From positions 47,787 to 111,786 of the forward strand of contig CAVXNC010000001.1 of NCBI GenBank assembly GCA_963762865.1: a DNA stretch of 64,000 bases. Reading direction: 5' to 3'. Positions 25,163 to 60,655 of the stretch are shown here, one piece after another (position 1 is the first letter of the stretch; every line of letters begins with the position of its first letter). Source of the DNA: an uncultured Actinomycetota bacterium (lineage in GTDB: Bacteria > Actinomycetota > Actinomycetes > JACCUZ01). Below the pieces are notes generated by a model that saw only the letters and a list, made by a program, of their open reading frames with translations, made no database searches and was not told the DNA's origin. Position numbers and translations under genes: made by a program.

Positions 25163-25945
25163 TCAGTCGCCGCGCAGGGCGGCGATCAGCCGCAGGAACT
25201 CGATGTAGAGCCAGACCAGGGTGACGACCAGGCCGAAGGCCGCGAGCCACGAATAGCGCTCGGGGAGTCCGTTCTTGACACCCTGCTCGGCGAAGTCGAA
25301 GTCCAGGATCAGCATGGCCGCAGCGATGGTGATCGCGATCAGGCCGATGAAGATGCCCATCGGTCCGCCGCGGAGGTCGTTGCCGGTGAAGAGCACGACC
25401 CCGAGGTTGACCAGGCTGAAGACCAGGTAGCCGCCGAGGGCGATCAGGACCCCGCGCTGGAACTTCGGGGTGGCGCGCACCCGGCCGCTCTTGTAGGCCC
25501 CCAGCGCCACCGCGAAGACCGCCAGCGTGCCCAGCACCGCCTGGGCGACGATGCCGTCGTAGAAGTCCTCGTAGACCCCGCTGATGCCGCCGACGAAGAG
25601 GCCCTCGAGCGCGGCGTAGCTGAGCATCAGAGCCGGGTTGGTCGACTGCTTGAACGAGATGATCAGAGCGACGACCAGGCCGGCGATCGCACCGCCGAAG
25701 GTGAGCGCGGGGTTCTTCAGGAAGAAGTTCACCGCCGCGAAGGGCACCAGCACGGCGAACATCAGACCGGTCTTGATGACGACGTCGTCCATCGTCATCC
25801 GGCCGGTTTGCACTCCGGTCGCCGTTGGGGCGTTGTACATCTCCTCGAGCGCGCCGGCGGAGGCCGTCGGCGTCTCGTTGAAGGTGGCGTAGCCGCGTCG
25901 TGAGAACGCGTCGCTACGGCCGAAGACCGGATTCCGGCTCTCCAT
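25163..25945 (-). CDS. Bax inhibitor-1/YccA family membrane protein
   Basis: 260 aa from MESRNPVFG, with 7 hydrophobic segments. It shows the BI-1-type layout of an N-terminal soluble region followed by a transmembrane core. Confidence 0.8.
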   Translation of the reverse strand: MESRNPVFGRSDAFSRRGYATFNETPTASAGALEEMYNAPTATGVQTGRMTMDDVVIKTGLMFAVLVPFAAVNFFLKNPALTFGGAIAGLVVALIISFKQSTNPALMLSYAALEGLFVGGISGVYEDFYDGIVAQAVLGTLAVFAVALGAYKSGRVRATPKFQRGVLIALGGYLVFSLVNLGVVLFTGNDLRGGPMGIFIGLIAITIAAAMLILDFDFAEQGVKNGLPERYSWLAAFGLVVTLVWLYIEFLRLIAALRGD

Positions 25946-26080
25946 GAGAAGTCCCTCCAAGGGCTTCTGGCCACGCAGTGGTGGCATGTCTCGTCCGACC
26001 ACCATAACGGCGCGGCGGGCCCGCCCGTTCCCGGAACCCCTGCCCGAGATGCCCGATGTCACCCGATCGCCCGGCACCCG

Positions 26081-26159
26081 TCGCCGGCGCTGGTGCCCCC
26101 GGTGGGAGTCGAACCCACATATGACCCCGCTTTTAAGGCGGGCGCCTCGGCCAGTTGGG
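26081..26159 (-). tRNA. tRNA gene, hand-folded anticodon UAA, with an atypical class-I length
   Basis: The reverse complement is GCCCCTGTAGCCCAACTGGCCGAGGCGCCCGCCTTAAAAGCGGGGTCATATGTGGGTTCGACTCCCACCGGGGGCACCA. It has a 7-bp acceptor stem, a T-arm GTGGG/TTCGACT/CCCAC, and an encoded CCA. The anticodon stem CCCGC/GCGGG holds the loop CTTAAAA, giving UAA. The variable region is only about 7 nt, whereas canonical tRNA-Leu is class II with a long variable arm. Confidence 0.55.
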
Positions 26160-26197
26160 CTACAGGGGCGGCGGGACCGCCACGTCGAGGGTAGTGC

Positions 26198-26731
26198 TCA
26201 GAGGTAGACGCGGCGGGCGTGCAACGCATGCGCGCCGGCAACCCGGTCGAGGAAGAGCAGCCCGTCGAGGTGGTCGACCTCGTGCTGGACTGCGCGCGCC
26301 TCGAACGCGTCGGTCTCCAGGCGTACCGGGGCGCCGCTCCCGGGCGCCATGCCGACCACGACGAGGCGGGTCGCCCGCTTCACGTCGCCGGTGAGGTCCG
26401 GCACCGACAGGCAGCCCTCGCGACCACGCTCCCAGCGGGTCGCCGACTCGACGACCGGGTTGACCAGGACGAGCGTTCCGTGGCTGGTCCGTGCCTTGGG
26501 GTGGCCGGTGACGTCGAGGGAGAACACCCGCGCGCCCACGCCGATCTGGGGTGCCGCCAGGCCGACGCAGCCCGGCGACGACCGCTGGGTCGCGAGCAGG
26601 TCGGCGGCCAGCGTCACCACCTCCGGTGACCTCGGGTCGACCTCGACCGCGGGCCGCCCGAGGCCGGGCGCCGGCGCGCGCACGACCGGCCGGACCCGGC
26701 CCTCCGGGAGCTCCGGGCCGGGGCCGCTCAC
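26198..26731 (-). CDS. def: peptide deformylase
   Basis: It has motif I GLAAPQIG, motif II EGCLS and motif III QHEVDHLDG. Confidence 0.85.
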   Translation of the reverse strand: MSGPGPELPEGRVRPVVRAPAPGLGRPAVEVDPRSPEVVTLAADLLATQRSSPGCVGLAAPQIGVGARVFSLDVTGHPKARTSHGTLVLVNPVVESATRWERGREGCLSVPDLTGDVKRATRLVVVGMAPGSGAPVRLETDAFEARAVQHEVDHLDGLLFLDRVAGAHALHARRVYL

Positions 26732-27246
26732 AGCAGGTCGGGCTCGAGCGGGCGCAGGGACACCTGCACCCCCAGCTCGTCGCCCACTGCCCGCAGCCGG
26801 CCGGTCAGGCCGCCGGCATCCGCGCCGGGCGGCAGGTCGACCTCGGCCACCAGGACGTAGAGGTCGCCGGTGAGGCGCGTCGTGAGGTCGGTGATGTTGC
26901 CGCCCGAGGCGGCCACCTCCGCCGTGACCGCCGACACGATCCCGGGCCGGTCGCCGCCGTGGACCGAGAGCAGGTAGCCGGGCCCGGCCGTGTCCGCGAG
27001 CGCCTCGACGGGGACCTGGCGGACCGTCACCGCCAGGGTCCCGTCGGCGGTGAGCGGCGTGAGCGCAGCCTCCACCTCGGCCGGCGCCGCGTCGGCGGAG
27101 GCGACCAGCACCATCGCGAAGTGCCCCCGGAGGCGGGTCATAGACGAGTCCTCGAGGTTGGCCCCCAGCGCGGCGAGCAGGCCGGTGGCCTCGGCGATGA
27201 TCCCCGGCCGGTCGTGCCCGACGACGGTGACCGCCAGCAGGGCCAC
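26728..27246 (-). CDS. ACT-domain protein (GcvR-like tandem ACT)
   Basis: 172 aa from a GTG start. It has two ACT-like repeats, VTVVGHDRPGIIAEATGLLAALGANL and LSVHGGDRPGIVSAVTAEVAASGGNI. Its ends overlap the flanking genes by 4 nt each. Confidence 0.6.
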   Translation of the reverse strand: MALLAVTVVGHDRPGIIAEATGLLAALGANLEDSSMTRLRGHFAMVLVASADAAPAEVEAALTPLTADGTLAVTVRQVPVEALADTAGPGYLLSVHGGDRPGIVSAVTAEVAASGGNITDLTTRLTGDLYVLVAEVDLPPGADAGGLTGRLRAVGDELGVQVSLRPLEPDLL

Positions 27247-28607: not shown

Positions 28608-29939
28608 TCACCTGGACGCCTCGCTGAACTCTTCACGTGGCCGTTGCAGTGATCCCAGCGACACGACGTCCCGGCGGAAGAACAATGCCAGGGTCCAGTC
28701 GAGGACGACGCGGATCTTGCGGTTCAGGGTCGGCAGCCGGCTCACGTGGTAGGTCCGGTGCATGAACCATGCGGGCCAGCCGCGCAGCTTGACGCCGTAG
28801 ACCTGGGCCACGCCCTTGTACATCCCGAGGGACGCCACGGAACCGACGTGCTTGTGCGCGTAGGAGTCCGGGGTCCGGCCGCGCAGCACGAGGGCGATGT
28901 TGTCGCCGAGCCTCTTCGCCTGGCGCACCGCGTGCTGGGCACTCGGGCTGCAGATCGCACCCGGCGGACCGGTCAGGTCCGGGACGGCCGCGCCGTCGCC
29001 GGCCGACCAGGCGTCGGCGACGTTCTCGACGCGCAGGTCCGCGTGGCACCTGAGGCGCCCCTTGTCGTCGACGGGCAACCCGGTCGCAGCCAGCATCGGG
29101 TTCGCCTTGACACCTGCCGTCCAGACGACCGTCTCCGCGTCGAACTCCTCGCCGTCGGAGAGAACGATGTGACCACCGACGCAGGACTCCAGCCGCGTCT
29201 CCAGCCGGACGTCGATCTTGCGCTGCCGCAGCTGCTCGACCGTGTACCGACCGAGGTCCTCACCGACCTCGGGCAGGATCCGGTTCGACGCCTCGACGAG
29301 CACGAACCGGATGTCGCCCTTGGACAGGTCGGGGTAGTAGCGGGTCGCGTAGGTCGTCATGTCCTCGAGCTCGCCGAGAGCCTCGATACCGGCGTAGCCG
29401 CCCCCGACGAAGACGAAGGTCAGCAACGCACGGCGCGCGGCGTGGTCGGTCACCGAGGTGGCGATGTCGAGCTTCTCGAGCATCGTGTTGCGCAGCGCGA
29501 TCGCTTCCTCGACCTGCTTGAAGCCGATGCCCAGCTCGGCGAGGCCGGGGATCGGCAGCGTCCGCGCGATGGAGCCGGGTGCCAGCACGACGACCTCGTA
29601 GGACAGGTCGTAGGCCTCGCCGCGGACCGGGTGGATCCGAGCCACCTTGCGGCCGTGGTCGACCGAGTCGACCCGGCCGGTGAGCACCTCGCACTTGTCC
29701 AGGACGCGGCGCAGCGGGACCACCACGTGCCGCGGCTCGACGTTGCCGGCCGCGGCCTCCGGCAGGAAGGGCTGGTAGGTCATGTACGACCGCGGGTCGA
29801 CGACGATGACCTCGACCGTCTTCGCCTTCAGCTCCTTCTTCAACCGCTTCTGCAGACGCAAAGCGGTGTACATCCCGACGTATCCACCACCCACGACCAG
29901 GATCCGGGTGCGCTCCGGAGAGGACGCGGTGTTGACCAT
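28608..29939 (-). CDS. ndh: type II NADH dehydrogenase (NADH:quinone oxidoreductase)
   Basis: 443 aa from MVNTASSPERTRILVVGGGYVGMY. It has two dinucleotide-binding GxGxxG folds, VVGGGYVG and FVGGGYAG. Confidence 0.9.
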   Translation of the reverse strand: MVNTASSPERTRILVVGGGYVGMYTALRLQKRLKKELKAKTVEVIVVDPRSYMTYQPFLPEAAAGNVEPRHVVVPLRRVLDKCEVLTGRVDSVDHGRKVARIHPVRGEAYDLSYEVVVLAPGSIARTLPIPGLAELGIGFKQVEEAIALRNTMLEKLDIATSVTDHAARRALLTFVFVGGGYAGIEALGELEDMTTYATRYYPDLSKGDIRFVLVEASNRILPEVGEDLGRYTVEQLRQRKIDVRLETRLESCVGGHIVLSDGEEFDAETVVWTAGVKANPMLAATGLPVDDKGRLRCHADLRVENVADAWSAGDGAAVPDLTGPPGAICSPSAQHAVRQAKRLGDNIALVLRGRTPDSYAHKHVGSVASLGMYKGVAQVYGVKLRGWPAWFMHRTYHVSRLPTLNRKIRVVLDWTLALFFRRDVVSLGSLQRPREEFSEASR

Positions 29940-29941
29940 GG

Positions 29942-30703
29942 TCAGAGCGTAGAACCGCTCCCGCCTCGATGCTTCGCCAGATCCGCCGAGCGGCCCAGCA
30001 CCTGGTCGAGCATCGGTGCCGTCAGTCGCCCGGTGAAGGTGTTCTGCTGGCTCGGATGGAAGGACCCGAGGACCACCAGGGGGCCGATGCGCACCTCTGC
30101 GCCGTGACCGAACCTGGGCCGCGGCCGGGGCACCGGGAGGCCGAGCTGCTGCAGCGTCGACAGCAGCGACTGCCAGGCGAAGGCGCCGAGCGCGACGGCC
30201 ACCCGGAGACCCGGCAGCACCAGCTCGACCTCCCGGACCATCCACGGCGCGCAGGTGTCGCGCTCGGCCGGCGTCGGCTTGTTGTCCGGCGGCGCGCACC
30301 GGACAGCGGCCAGCATCCGGGTGCCGATCAGGGCCTGGCCGTCACCGACGTGGGTGCTGGTCTCCTGCACCGCGAGGCCGACGCGGTGCAGCGAGGCGAA
30401 GAGCCAGTCGCCGCTGCGGTCGCCGGTGAAGATGCGGCCGGTCCGGTTGCCGCCGTGCGCGGCAGGAGCCAGCCCGACGATGAGAACCGCCGGTTGCTCG
30501 GCACCCCAGCCAGGGATCGGCCGGCCCCAGTAGGTCTCGTCCGCGAAGGCCTTGCGCTTCTCGCTGGCCACCCGCTCGCGCCACTCGACCAGCCGCGGGC
30601 AGGCCCGGCACGCGGACACGGCGTCCTCGAGGTCACCCAGCCGACCGGCTGTGGCGGCGTACGACCGGACCTCGTCAGGACCGGACGCGACGGGCACGCC
30701 CAC
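29942..30703 (-). CDS. uracil-DNA glycosylase, family 4 (Fe-S type)
   Basis: It has the CRACPRL cysteine motif, GLAPAAHGGNRTGR (the GxxPG and GNRTG active-site region), and HPS near the C-terminus. Confidence 0.8.
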   Translation of the reverse strand: MGVPVASGPDEVRSYAATAGRLGDLEDAVSACRACPRLVEWRERVASEKRKAFADETYWGRPIPGWGAEQPAVLIVGLAPAAHGGNRTGRIFTGDRSGDWLFASLHRVGLAVQETSTHVGDGQALIGTRMLAAVRCAPPDNKPTPAERDTCAPWMVREVELVLPGLRVAVALGAFAWQSLLSTLQQLGLPVPRPRPRFGHGAEVRIGPLVVLGSFHPSQQNTFTGRLTAPMLDQVLGRSADLAKHRGGSGSTL

Positions 30704-46615: not shown

Positions 46616-48087
46616 CGCCGCTCCGCGGGGCTGGCGTGGTCGAGACCGTGCACCGTCTTCTCCCAGAACGACGGCGCCGTGACCATCTGCACCGCGGCCT
46701 TCGCCGCGGCCGCCGACATCAGCACCCAGTAGGCGGGCAGCAGCAGCAGGCTCCTGGCCAGCGATGCCCGACCGCACTCGCGGGCCGCGAGCAGCGAGCA
46801 GTAGACCGAGCCGGTGAGCCCGCCCAGCCAGACGAGCATCTCGAGGTGGTAGAGCGGGCTCGGGAAGATGGCTGCCAGCTGCGACGAGCCGGAGAGCAGG
46901 TAGAACAGGCTCAGCGTCCACAGCACCGGGTTCAGCAGCGCGAGCAGCGGCGTCCCGCCGACGAAGAGCAGGAAGCCGGCCGTCCCCCGCGGGCCGAGCT
47001 CGTCGACCAGACGACGGGGGTCGCGGGTGTGCACCAGCAGGGTCTGCAGATAGCCCTTGTACCAGCGACTGCGCTGCTTGACCCAGTTGACGACGTCGCT
47101 GTTCGCCTCCTCCAGCGTCACGCTGTCGAGCACCCGCACCCCGAAGCCCGCGCGGGCCAGCCGCACGCCGAGATCCGCGTCCTCGGTCACGTTGTACGGG
47201 TCCCAGGCGCCGATGCGCTCGAGCACCTTGCGGCGGATGTGGTTGGACGTGCCCCCCAACGGGATCGGGTGGCCGGCCCGGACGAGCCCGGGCAGCCAGA
47301 ACCGGAACCACACGTCGTACTCGTTGGTGAACCAGCGGGTGAGCAGGTTCTGCTCGGCGTTGTGGTAGGCCAGCCGGGCCTGCAGGCAGGCCACGTGCGG
47401 CGGCAGCCTGCTGAAGGCGACGGCGGCGCGGCGCAGCTGCAGCGGGTCCGGCCGGTCCTCCGCGTCGTAGATCGTCACCAGCGAGCCGCGGGCGCACATC
47501 AGGCCGACGTTGCACGCCTTGGGTTTGGTCCGTGGCTCGCGGACGGCGATGCCGACGGGCGTGACGTAGGGCGGCAGGTCCAGGTCGACGAGAGCTTCGA
47601 ACGTCTCCTCGTCGTCGTCCTCGACGAGGAGAAGCACCTCGAGACGGTTTCGTGGGTAACTGATGCGGTCGATCTCCTCGAGCACCCGGCCGACCATCGT
47701 GGGCTCGCGGTAGACCGGCACGAGCACCGTGTAGACGGGCAGGTTGCGTCGAGGGAAGCCGCGCGCTTCAGCGTCACTGACCGACTCCATCTCGACGCTG
47801 CGCAACGAGCCGGTGAAGAGCACGACTCGGTGCCACAGCACCGCGGCGTGGGCGGCGGTCACGAGTGCCACCAGCACGGTCGCGGTGGCGAGCGGCACGA
47901 CGGCGAAGCCGATGAACAGGACAAGGCCGACGCAGACGACCGTCAGACGCTGCACGCGCGACCAGCCGCGCTGCGCGGACAGGCCGGGATTCCTGCGGTC
48001 GAGCGACTCGCTGGCCAGCTCGGCGATCGCATCCGGCGACAGCGAGCGGACTCCCCGGACCCGGGCCCGCGCCGGCGAGAGCCTCAC
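46612..48087 (-). CDS. processive family-2 glycosyltransferase (cellulose/chitin/hyaluronan-synthase-like)
   Basis: 491 aa. It has 2 N-terminal transmembrane helices, a GT-A catalytic domain with the DAED and QRSRWYKG (QxxRW) motifs, and about 4 C-terminal transmembrane helices. Confidence 0.8.
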   Translation of the reverse strand: MRLSPARARVRGVRSLSPDAIAELASESLDRRNPGLSAQRGWSRVQRLTVVCVGLVLFIGFAVVPLATATVLVALVTAAHAAVLWHRVVLFTGSLRSVEMESVSDAEARGFPRRNLPVYTVLVPVYREPTMVGRVLEEIDRISYPRNRLEVLLLVEDDDEETFEALVDLDLPPYVTPVGIAVREPRTKPKACNVGLMCARGSLVTIYDAEDRPDPLQLRRAAVAFSRLPPHVACLQARLAYHNAEQNLLTRWFTNEYDVWFRFWLPGLVRAGHPIPLGGTSNHIRRKVLERIGAWDPYNVTEDADLGVRLARAGFGVRVLDSVTLEEANSDVVNWVKQRSRWYKGYLQTLLVHTRDPRRLVDELGPRGTAGFLLFVGGTPLLALLNPVLWTLSLFYLLSGSSQLAAIFPSPLYHLEMLVWLGGLTGSVYCSLLAARECGRASLARSLLLLPAYWVLMSAAAAKAAVQMVTAPSFWEKTVHGLDHASPAERR

Positions 48088-48854
48088 GGACCGTCCGCCC
48101 GGAGCCGGACCACGCCGTCGCTGCTGACGGAACGGCTGTCCTGCAGGGTGACGAGCCCGCGACCTACCGTCGTCAGCAGCCGACCGACTGCCGCGACGCG
48201 GTCTCCGGTCGTGGCGTTGTGCGTCACGACCGACTTCACGACAGGTGAAGGGACACCGCCGGACGAGTCGAGCACCGGCACGACGCGCTGTCGGGTGTCG
48301 ACCATCAGCAGGACCACGCGCTCGTACTCGGTGCGACCGTCGGCACTGGTGACCGGGCGTTCCCAGTGCAGTGCCGTCCAGTCCCTGCCGTCACGCGGGT
48401 CGAAGTACGAGAGCAGTGTGCCGCGGACGGCCGGGCTGAGCCGTACCTCGCGGGACGAGCGGACGTCGAAGCCGTGGAACGAGTAACACGCCTCGATGCT
48501 GTAGGTCCTCATCCGCAGCAGGCTCGGCGTGGTGACGACGTCCGTCAGGATCGAGGCGGACTGCCGGTCCCCGAGCAGCTCGCCGCTGATGGTGCCTGGC
48601 GACAGCGAGAGCAGACTGCGATGCCACGTGGACGCCGACCCGAAGTACTGGGTTGCCCACGGGATGGAGCCGAGCGCTGCAGTCGAGAAGCCGGGCAGAG
48701 CCACCGGCTGGTCCGCGTACGACGCGACGTCGGCGCCACCAACGGGGTCGCCGAGCCCGGCAACAGCTGCCAGCCTGCTGTTCGCTCCCGCGCCGACGAC
48801 GACTCCCACGACCAGCACAGCTGCCCCTAAGACGGGCACCGGTCGCCGTGCCAC
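48084..48854 (-). CDS. exosortase-associated EpsI-like periplasmic protein (putative)
   Basis: 256 aa. It has an N-terminal transmembrane/signal segment RRPVPVLGAAVLVVGVVVGA, then a beta-rich soluble domain. It sits between the exosortase and the GT2 gene and overlaps both by 4 nt. Confidence 0.4.
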   Translation of the reverse strand: MARRPVPVLGAAVLVVGVVVGAGANSRLAAVAGLGDPVGGADVASYADQPVALPGFSTAALGSIPWATQYFGSASTWHRSLLSLSPGTISGELLGDRQSASILTDVVTTPSLLRMRTYSIEACYSFHGFDVRSSREVRLSPAVRGTLLSYFDPRDGRDWTALHWERPVTSADGRTEYERVVLLMVDTRQRVVPVLDSSGGVPSPVVKSVVTHNATTGDRVAAVGRLLTTVGRGLVTLQDSRSVSSDGVVRLRADGP

Positions 48855-60485: not shown

Positions 60486-60583
60486 GCGCGGAGCGCTCCT
60501 CGGCGAGGCGGCGGACGGGACGTCTTGCGGTCCGAGGATACCCGCCGTTCAGGACCCGGATCCCCAGGCGTCGAACCCACAAG

Positions 60584-60655
60584 CTCCCGGGAGAGGACTC
60601 GAACCCCTATCTGACTGGACCAAAACCAGCTGTGTTGCCGTTACACCACCCGGGA
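60584..60655 (-). tRNA. tRNA-Gln (anticodon TTG)
   Basis: The reverse complement is TCCCGGGTGGTGTAACGGCAACACAGCTGGTTTTGGTCCAGTCAGATAGGGGTTCGAGTCCTCTCCCGGGAG. It has a 7-bp acceptor stem, the anticodon loop TTTTGGT, the T-loop GGTTCGAGTCC, and no encoded CCA. Confidence 0.8.

Follow-up and report, generated by a model that had tools for sequence, protein, structure and literature searches.

A short-armed tRNA-Leu(UAA) gene beside def in an uncultured actinobacterium, a probable member of a widespread type I-like family of leucine tRNAs

Can a bacterial tRNA that carries the leucine anticodon UAA on a body with a short variable arm be a working leucine tRNA, or is it a molecule of altered identity, a truncated gene or a relic? 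This question is raised by a tRNA gene next to the peptide deformylase gene def in a stretch of 64,000 nt from an uncultured Actinomycetota bacterium (contig CAVXNC010000001.1 of assembly GCA_963762865.1; the whole stretch is referred to as the window). The comparisons described below suggest that the gene very probably encodes a functional tRNA-Leu(UAA) whose scaffold, type I-like and with a short variable arm, is common in Actinomycetota. The molecule is unusual-looking but essentially ordinary and belongs to a widespread actinobacterial family of short-armed leucine tRNAs. While actinobacterial type I tRNALeu is known as such, a member with a UAA anticodon and a 7-nt variable loop is new.

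ARAGORN calls two tRNAs in the window, one of which is the tRNA-Leu(taa) in question, located on the minus strand and 79 nt long including the encoded CCA (the coordinates of all features are collected in Table 1). The Rfam model RF00005 matches its body at 54.3 bits (gathering threshold 29) with an E-value of 6.7e-9, and the match covers the full-length model from position 1 to 71 without truncation. This score is nearly equal to the 55.7 bits of the second window tRNA, a tRNA-Gln(UUG) of canonical class I architecture. Read on the minus strand, the segments are GCCCCUG UA GCC CAACUGGCCGA GGC G CCCGC CUUAAAA GCGGG GUCAUAU GUGGG UUCGACU CCCAC CGGGGGC A CCA. The acceptor stem thus comprises 7 bp with one U-G pair and is followed by U8 and A9, the T arm is canonical, and the discriminator A73 precedes the encoded CCA. 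In the D arm, C13 and A22 remain unpaired, as flagged by Rfam. The variable region comprises the same 7 nt in ARAGORN and in the Rfam alignment, and its last base, U48, can pair with A15. A sequence-only reading of this DNA had already recognized the acceptor stem, the encoded CCA, the T arm and the anticodon stem and loop, had folded the UAA anticodon by hand, and had described a class-II-style D loop, a 76-nt body with a variable region of about 7 nt and the adjoining def gene, all of which agree with the program calls. The gene it postulated is real, but its position, given as 26081-26159 with no strand stated, is off by 10 nt. Assignment of another isotype or a pseudogene score by a program would, in that reading, have spoken against it, and neither ARAGORN nor Rfam gave such a result.

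The puzzle lies in the combination of these features. A class II tRNA has a variable arm of more than 10 nt that forms a stem-loop, whereas the variable region found here spans 7 nt and has no stem. The 3-bp D stem and the enlarged 11-nt D loop, in turn, are class II traits, and the leucine anticodon resides in a canonical 7-nt loop with U33 and a purine at position 37. The window tRNA resembles canonical bacterial class II tRNALeu, e.g. that of E. coli, in its 3-bp D stem, large D loop, A14, A15-U48, G18G19 and A73, and differs from it by the missing long variable arm. A similarly short loop combined with a UAA-type anticodon for UUR codons is known from mitochondrial type I tRNALeu(UUR). These organellar molecules are structurally relaxed, however, and served by their own leucyl-tRNA synthetase (LeuRS), and no evolutionary link is implied.

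The gene is embedded in a slot between def and a downstream gene for a BaxI_1/YccA-family membrane protein (BaxI). Syntenic loci were collected by exact-protein look-ups and by searching species-representative genomes once with an alignment of BaxI (80 loci), which gave 88 loci in total, and ARAGORN was run on all of them. Of these 88 loci, 60 have a tRNA-Leu(UAA) gene upstream of BaxI, mostly at a distance of 30-250 nt, and the slot is therefore conserved across Actinomycetota. Arm-by-arm segmentation divides these genes into two scaffolds, for which our own labels are used in the following: S-type for the short-variable-arm, type I-like form (39 loci) and L-type for the class II, bldA-type form (21 loci). 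The S-type follows the pattern GCCCCnn UA GCC CAAn(n)GGCnGA GGC with a variable region of 4-8 nt and the T stem GUGGG/CCCAC. It occurs in the window, in the nearest relatives (BaxI 83-90% identical), in several relatives at 71-74%, in Motilibacter deserti and Arthrobacter sp. H14, as well as in every acI/Nanopelagicales locus with an ARAGORN-called tRNA. The L-type reads GCCCGGn UG GYG GAA..GCAGA CRC, with a 13-14-nt arm that contains a 3-4-bp stem and with the T stem GCSGG, and is carried by other metagenome-assembled genomes (MAGs; BaxI 73-78% identical), a Sporichthyaceae MAG, Kitasatospora and Peterkaempfera. Common to all S- and L-type tRNA-Leu(UAA) is the 3-bp D stem, with D loops of 10-11 nt in the former and 9-11 nt in the latter.

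Within the clade of the window, the gene is kept at the same site in every sampled relative. The closest BaxI homologues stem from MAGs labelled as uncultured 'Actinomycetes bacterium' or Sporichthyaceae; locus L001 contains an identical tRNA gene, a metagenome contig (L120) presents a near-identical locus, and the exact BaxI protein of the window is encoded on the 112-kb ENA contig ERZ25039547:contig_63561. A metagenome scan with the clade-specific tRNA sequence returned 21 JGI contigs, all 21 of which place the tRNA in the def–tRNA–BaxI slot, and the changes among these copies are either confined to loops or compensatory. The variable regions of these copies read GUCAUCU, GUCAUAU, GUCAUGU, GUCACAU, GUCAUAGU, GACAUGGU or (U)CCAGU; apart from GUCAUAU, which is that of the window tRNA, these are variable regions of sister lineages. 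Three versions of the anticodon stem were found among the relatives (CCCGC/GCGGG, CUCGC/GCGGG and CUCGU/ACGAG).

The same kind of constraint is evident across the scaffold at large. Across 23 aligned S-type sequences, paired positions are indeed paired in 99.6% of the cells and 15 of the 20 pairs have changed on both sides, a level reached in 0 of 500 shuffles, while slid partners fall to 38-53% paired. No variation is seen at U8, A14, A15, G18 and G19, in UUCGA, the core of the T loop, or at the final variable base, a U that partners A15; the loop CUUAAAA is present in all 17 rows of the alignment that have a UAA anticodon as well as in the further S-type UAA genes that were identified. The LeuRS identity elements considered in the light of PMC6614811, i.e. 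U8-A14, the D/T elbow (G18G19/U54-A58/U55C56), A73 (as in E. coli) and nucleotide 48, are all present in the window tRNA. When annotated plasmids and phages were compared by BLAST with S-type queries, S-type genes with further leucine anticodons came to light: CAA in Tsukamurella tyrosinosolvens, where the gene adjoins an integrase, and in the Streptomyces phage Wofford (annotated tRNA-Leu(caa), with the 7-nt variable region GUCUUAU), CAG on a plasmid of Mycolicibacterium alvei, and UAG in Gordonia phages, where the genes are annotated as tRNA-Leu. UAA versions were found in chromosomal records of Nocardia farcinica and Nonomuraea gerenzanensis and on a 1.35-Mb replicon of Arthrobacter. In this small and BLAST-biased sample, the scaffold is seen exclusively with leucine anticodons (UAA, CAA, CAG and UAG), and none of the matches is a Streptomyces chromosomal copy.

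Some of the plasmid-borne genes are peculiar in their own right. On the M. alvei plasmid pJCM12272 (L090:53-225), an 87-nt class II tRNA-Leu(CAA) adjoins the 75-nt S-type tRNA-Leu(CAG), and an odd tRNA-Lys(UUU) comes next; this cluster unites both scaffolds, with an anticodon assignment opposite to that in S. coelicolor. The Mycobacterium riyadhense plasmid Mriy_45176_p1 (L096:121-198) harbors an S-type tRNA-Leu-like gene with the 8-nt anticodon loop UUCAAAAA, which ARAGORN reports as 'tRNA-??? caaa' and which may be of a frameshift type or damaged. Outside the Actinomycetota, short-variable-arm tRNA-Leu genes with CAA and UAA anticodons stand in tandem on pRUMAL01 of Ruminococcus albus 7 (L099), and one with CAA lies inside a tRNA array on plasmid delta of Nostoc PCC 7120 (L100).

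A biochemical precedent is available from S. coelicolor, which, next to four class II tRNALeu genes including bldA (UAA), possesses a single natural tRNALeu(CAA) of type I, whose loop measures 5 nt (Fan et al., NAR 2019, PMC6614811). The single S. coelicolor LeuRS (ScoLeuRS) charges both types, with U8-A14 as an identity element common to the two and without a requirement for A73, whereas the human mitochondrial type I tRNALeu(UUR) is not charged (PMC6614811). Good charging takes a minimum of five variable-loop nucleotides including nucleotide 48, and an S. coelicolor tRNALeu(UAA) deprived of all five variable-stem base pairs, which leaves 7 nt, still accepts leucine (PMC6614811). Recognition by LeuRS is independent of the anticodon (introduction of PMC6614811), and, as far as it is recounted there (ref. 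38 of PMC6614811), a change of its anticodon from CAA to UAA enables the type I tRNA to rescue a bldA mutant in vivo. By loop length, the window tRNA with its 7 nt falls within type I as described by Fan et al. 2019, namely a leucine-accepting tRNA whose short stemless loop has 5 nt or more. Both are actinomycete leucine tRNAs with a short stemless variable loop from a phylum in which class II tRNALeu coexist. They differ in the natural anticodon (CAA in S. coelicolor, UAA in the window), in the variable region (5 nt, ACAGC, versus 7 nt, GUCAUAU) and at position 48 (C48 versus U48, the latter forming the A15-U48 pair). No published account of natural type I tRNALeu(UAA) genes or of their distribution was found in the literature.

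From the results of Fan et al. (PMC6614811), leucylation of the window tRNA with its 7-nt loop, U8-A14, G18G19 and U48 would be the expected outcome. Presumably, the single bacterial-type LeuRS of the organism charges it with leucine, relying on U8-A14 and the D/T elbow instead of the anticodon or a long arm; at least five variable-loop nucleotides would be needed for this purpose, and seven are present. The charged tRNA would then decode the very rare codon UUA and possibly also UUG by U34 wobble. The run A36-A37-A38 is the usual determinant for MiaA, which installs i6A37, and this modification is likely in the window tRNA as well. The proposal that the molecule is either of unusual identity or degenerate, as put forward in the sequence-only reading, is not borne out, given that dozens of species keep the gene with compensatory stem changes, that the scaffold is seen with leucine anticodons only and that type I tRNALeu has a precedent (PMC6614811). 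For Actinomycetota, its starting point that a bacterial tRNA-Leu belongs to class II in every case was too strong.

Several points weigh against a functional short-armed tRNA-Leu(UAA) of this kind. A scan detected no consensus promoter or terminator around the window tRNA, although such a scan is uninformative at 73% GC. In the minimum free energy fold of the isolated sequence, the 3' strand of the D stem pairs with GUC of the variable region and the D arm does not form, at a z-score of only -1.69; this fold is taken as no more than a caveat, because covariation backs the cloverleaf. With 7-8 nt, the variable region of the window clade exceeds the 5 nt seen in the S. coelicolor type I tRNALeu and in the majority of S-type genes, and the tests of Fan et al. 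did not cover insertions into the type I loop (PMC6614811). Homology between the S. coelicolor tRNALeu(CAA) and the S-type, in turn, is suggested by the shared short loop (ACAGC vs xCAGU) and by S-type CAA genes in other actinobacteria. Finally, the window tRNA stems from an uncultured MAG lineage, and its charging, expression and modification are putative.

Granted that the tRNA is functional, its role could go beyond housekeeping. In a bldA-like scenario, the abundance of the tRNA would gate translation of the few genes that contain TTA codons, as the sequence-only reading had hinted by recalling the developmental switch of Streptomyces. The rarity of UUA that it had noted is certainly there: at 72.8% GC, a stringent census of 39 open reading frames with a coding-type GC content at the third codon position counts 0 TTA and 25 TTG in 14,656 codons, and a relaxed census of 42 reading frames finds 1 TTA and 46 TTG in 16,153 codons. 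UUA is as rare in the window as in Streptomyces, where S. coelicolor contains 145 TTA codons genome-wide (PMC6614811). The sole candidate in-frame TTA is codon 9 of a minus-strand reading frame for an uncharacterised protein. This protein gives no Pfam match and its N-terminus resembles a signal peptide, which would place the codon in a secreted or membrane protein; the coding status of the TTA depends on the start codon. The link to bldA is also visible in gene order, because the slot of the window tRNA is where Kitasatospora spp. and Peterkaempfera keep an 84-85-nt class II, bldA-type tRNA-Leu(UAA) upstream of a BaxI homologue (in the one Streptomyces locus sampled, L038, there is no tRNA within 2.5 kb of BaxI). 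The window tRNA shares with bldA the anticodon, the loop CUUAAAA, a very rare cognate codon and a GC-rich actinomycete background, yet it stands outside the bldA sequence family: in the bldA-type genes, the variable arm measures 13-17 nt and includes a stem of 3-5 bp, the D loop has 9 nt with a single G at 18/19, and the acceptor, D and T stems are different throughout, with about 56% identity for the Kitasatospora gene. Against a regulatory role, the lineage is uncultured and the codon evidence comes from 64 kb only. In addition, should the organism lack a CAA isoacceptor, the 25-46 TTG found among 15-16 thousand codons may fall to this tRNA as well, which would make it a housekeeping decoder. 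Thus, a bldA-like regulatory function is conceivable but rather doubtful.

With regard to origin, the short arm might have arisen within the clade, by in-place deletion of the variable stem from a class II, bldA-type tRNA-Leu(UAA). This is suggested by the common slot, anticodon loop and D-arm geometry and by relatives with 74-78% identical BaxI that hold an 83-84-nt class II gene in the slot, and arm truncation on a class II scaffold does seem to occur elsewhere. However, the differences between S- and L-type extend well beyond the arm to acceptor positions 5-7, base 9, the D stem, bases 13 and 26, the whole anticodon stem and base 50 of the T stem. Moreover, the window tRNA is 89-97% identical to the S-type genes of its own clade and still 75-82% to those of other orders, whereas its identity to the L-type genes in the slot of near relatives amounts to only 56-63%, close to a background of about 55% as given by the window tRNA-Gln, and the outgroup Motilibacter is S-type. 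An in-situ deletion is thus highly unlikely and was dropped once full sequences had revealed two distinct scaffolds with the window gene nearer to S-type genes of other orders. Because of these identities, the window tRNA is best regarded as belonging to an old family of short-armed genes and not as a class II gene that lost its arm recently. The case of truncation alluded to above is a tRNA-Leu(UAA) on the linear plasmid NZ_CP108868.1 of Streptomyces sp. NBC_00829 (L092:151-227), with bldA-like acceptor, D and T stems (L-type) and the 6-nt variable region UCCCCU. It looks like an independent arm truncation on a class II scaffold and, at the same time, like a plasmid-borne bldA-like gene.

Alternatively, the identity of the tRNA could have switched, so that a class I tRNA of another isotype with a UAA anticodon would insert an amino acid other than leucine at UUA by mistranslation or recoding. 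A leucine anticodon on a tRNA of class I geometry is atypical in bacteria, and anomalous pairs of tRNAs and aminoacyl-tRNA synthetases are known in Streptomyces. This scenario is nonetheless extremely unlikely in view of the class-II-type D arm as in bona fide tRNA-Leu, of U8-A14, A15-U48, G18G19 and A73, of a scaffold that is found with leucine anticodons only and of the absence of G3:U70, and since natural type I tRNALeu is leucylated by ScoLeuRS (PMC6614811). Kinship to tRNA-Lys, which the sequence-only reading had suggested for comparison, or to tRNA-Gln was ruled out, as the window tRNA is 50-55% identical to either, which equals background.

That the gene is a decaying, nonfunctional class II tRNA-Leu stripped of its variable arm and tolerated as UUA is almost unused is barely credible, for although the near absence of TTA could weaken selection on a UUA reader, the variable region varies from 5 to 8 nt within the clade and the minimum free energy fold gives no clean cloverleaf, all four stems are fully paired, the Rfam score is about as high as for the window tRNA-Gln, every sampled relative retains the gene at the same site with substitutions in loops or compensatory ones, and the same scaffold is the slot tRNA-Leu(UAA) in every acI/Nanopelagicales locus with a called tRNA, i.e. 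in comparatively AT-rich genomes that should use UUA routinely.

If the short-armed scaffold is old, its distribution at this one locus deserves attention. The S-type occupies the slot in the window and in loci L003, L009-L011, L015, L017-L021 and L023, and the L-type in L004-L008, L012-L014, L016, L022 and L027. In trees of the proteins encoded on either side of the tRNA (up to 1,948 columns, 300 bootstraps, distances calculated with numpy), the clade of the window is entirely S-type (97% bootstrap), while a second clade with 100% bootstrap contains both types, with the L-type in L007, L022 and L016 and the S-type in L015, L018 and L020. This mixed clade together with the S-type outgroup Motilibacter implies at least two replacements between S- and L-type. 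Since the lineages are roughly genus-level apart and the backbone of these trees is weak (35-67%), a proper species tree is needed. In nucleotide alignments, S- and L-type loci share homologous sequence at the 3' end of def and in the BaxI leader, and the part that differs consists only of the tRNA and about 40 nt upstream. The flanks are 78-85% identical whichever tRNA type they enclose; the tRNAs are 93-96% identical within a type and 62-72% between types. The most economical reading of this alternation would be that lineages replaced the allele over a short tract, or that the types were lost differentially from an ancestral state as yet unseen. An ancestor with both types in tandem is unsupported, as none of the 88 BaxI loci holds both and no second or donor tRNA copy turned up elsewhere among the 21 metagenome matches, which is weak evidence given the short contigs.

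Taken as a whole, the case for recurrent exchange is evenly balanced. It would mean that the S- and L-type scaffolds of tRNALeu(UAA), whose sequences look unrelated, alternate at the def–tRNA–BaxI slot throughout Actinomycetota, with at least two in-place swaps within one family-level clade of soil MAGs, each comprising the tRNA and about 40 nt. This would imply short-tract replacement or gene conversion, or else a long-lived two-allele polymorphism, and type I tRNALeu would then be widespread in actinobacteria, phages and plasmids with all main leucine anticodons. If true, type I tRNALeu would no longer be the Streptomyces CAA oddity that the literature suggests, and the alternating scaffolds would provide a clean natural case of tRNA gene replacement at one locus, with many genomes available for study. 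Among all observations made here, this recurrent exchange of type I-like and class II genes in one conserved slot is the most deserving of follow-up.

Several consequences arise from the functional short-armed tRNA-Leu(UAA) itself. A leucine tRNA without the long arm would be normal in many actinobacteria, and annotation pipelines would be right to call such genes tRNA-Leu. The only biochemically studied bacterial type I tRNALeu, that of S. coelicolor with its CAA anticodon, would be extended to natural UAA isoacceptors, and natural variable loops of 6-8 nt could help to study how LeuRS gauges the length of the loop. The evolution of bldA-type regulation is touched as well, since the UUA-decoding tRNA of this conserved slot comes in a class I-like and a class II form.

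Turning to the neighbourhood, the first position of the tRNA follows the def stop codon by 28 nt on the same strand, and because of this arrangement it is probably transcribed together with def or just after it. The Pfam scans covered the neighbours of the tRNA and the reading frame with the candidate TTA. Farther upstream of def, their matches identify an ACT-domain gene, a CMAS-type methyltransferase and NDH-2, and the conserved block order is NDH2-(CMAS)-ACT-def-tRNA-BaxI.

Table 1. Coordinates of the tRNA-Leu(UAA) gene, its parts and other features within the window.
Feature	Position	Strand	Evidence and remarks
tRNA-Leu(UAA) gene	26091..26169	minus	ARAGORN; Rfam RF00005, 54.3 bits (match 26094-26169); 76-nt body 26094-26169, encoded CCA 26091-26093
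Anticodon UAA	26133..26135	minus	Direct sequence reading and ARAGORN (anticodon at position 35)
Anticodon loop CUUAAAA, 7 nt, U33 and A37	26131-26137	minus	Sequence, ARAGORN
Variable region GUCAUAU, 7 nt, stemless	26119..26125	minus	ARAGORN structure line and Rfam alignment insert
D arm, 3-bp stem GCC/GGC, 11-nt loop CAACUGGCCGA with A14, G18G19	26144..26160	minus	ARAGORN
Peptide deformylase (def), upstream neighbour	26198..26731	minus	PF01327, E 4.8e-37; also a called gene in L001
BaxI_1/YccA-family membrane protein, downstream neighbour	25163..25945	minus	PF12811, E 1.1e-80
ACT-domain protein	26728..27246	minus	Pfam ACT_6; gene call in L001; kept in relatives
Sole candidate in-frame TTA	48828..48830	minus	Codon 9 of the open reading frame 48084-48854; coding status depends on start codon
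Uncharacterised protein, signal-peptide-like N-terminus	48084-48854	minus	
NDH-2 product with N-terminal uracil-DNA-glycosylase match	28614-30626	minus	PF03167 and Pyr_redox_2/NDH2_C; L001:5320-7332
tRNA-Gln(UUG)	60583-60655	minus	Rfam, 55.7 bits; canonical class I
Open frame of 1,828 aa	17089-22575	plus	

The spacer between the tRNA and BaxI has a conspicuous counterpart in other loci. In an alignment of six relatives (L007, L015, L016, L018, L020 and L022), the BaxI leader is conserved and comprises a block 'gggaac…ttcgttacNctg' and a GC hairpin (CCCGCGAC…CGCGGG) directly before the GGAGG-ATG of BaxI. The block and hairpin of these relatives could be a promoter, an element of the 5' untranslated region or a terminator of the tRNA; the corresponding spacer of the window (about 25946-26090) lies outside the alignment.

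Two further reading frames in the window are noteworthy for their annotation. The NDH-2 product called in the source contig, of 670 aa, has an N-terminal match to uracil-DNA-glycosylase fused to the Pyr_redox_2/NDH2_C part, while in relatives (L006) the two are encoded by separate adjoining genes; the 670-aa product may be a true fusion or result from a missed stop or start. Lastly, the open frame of 1,828 aa on the plus strand overlaps several called genes on the opposite strand, which are shorter minus-strand genes in the source contig, and is most likely a spurious long reading frame as is typical at 73% GC.

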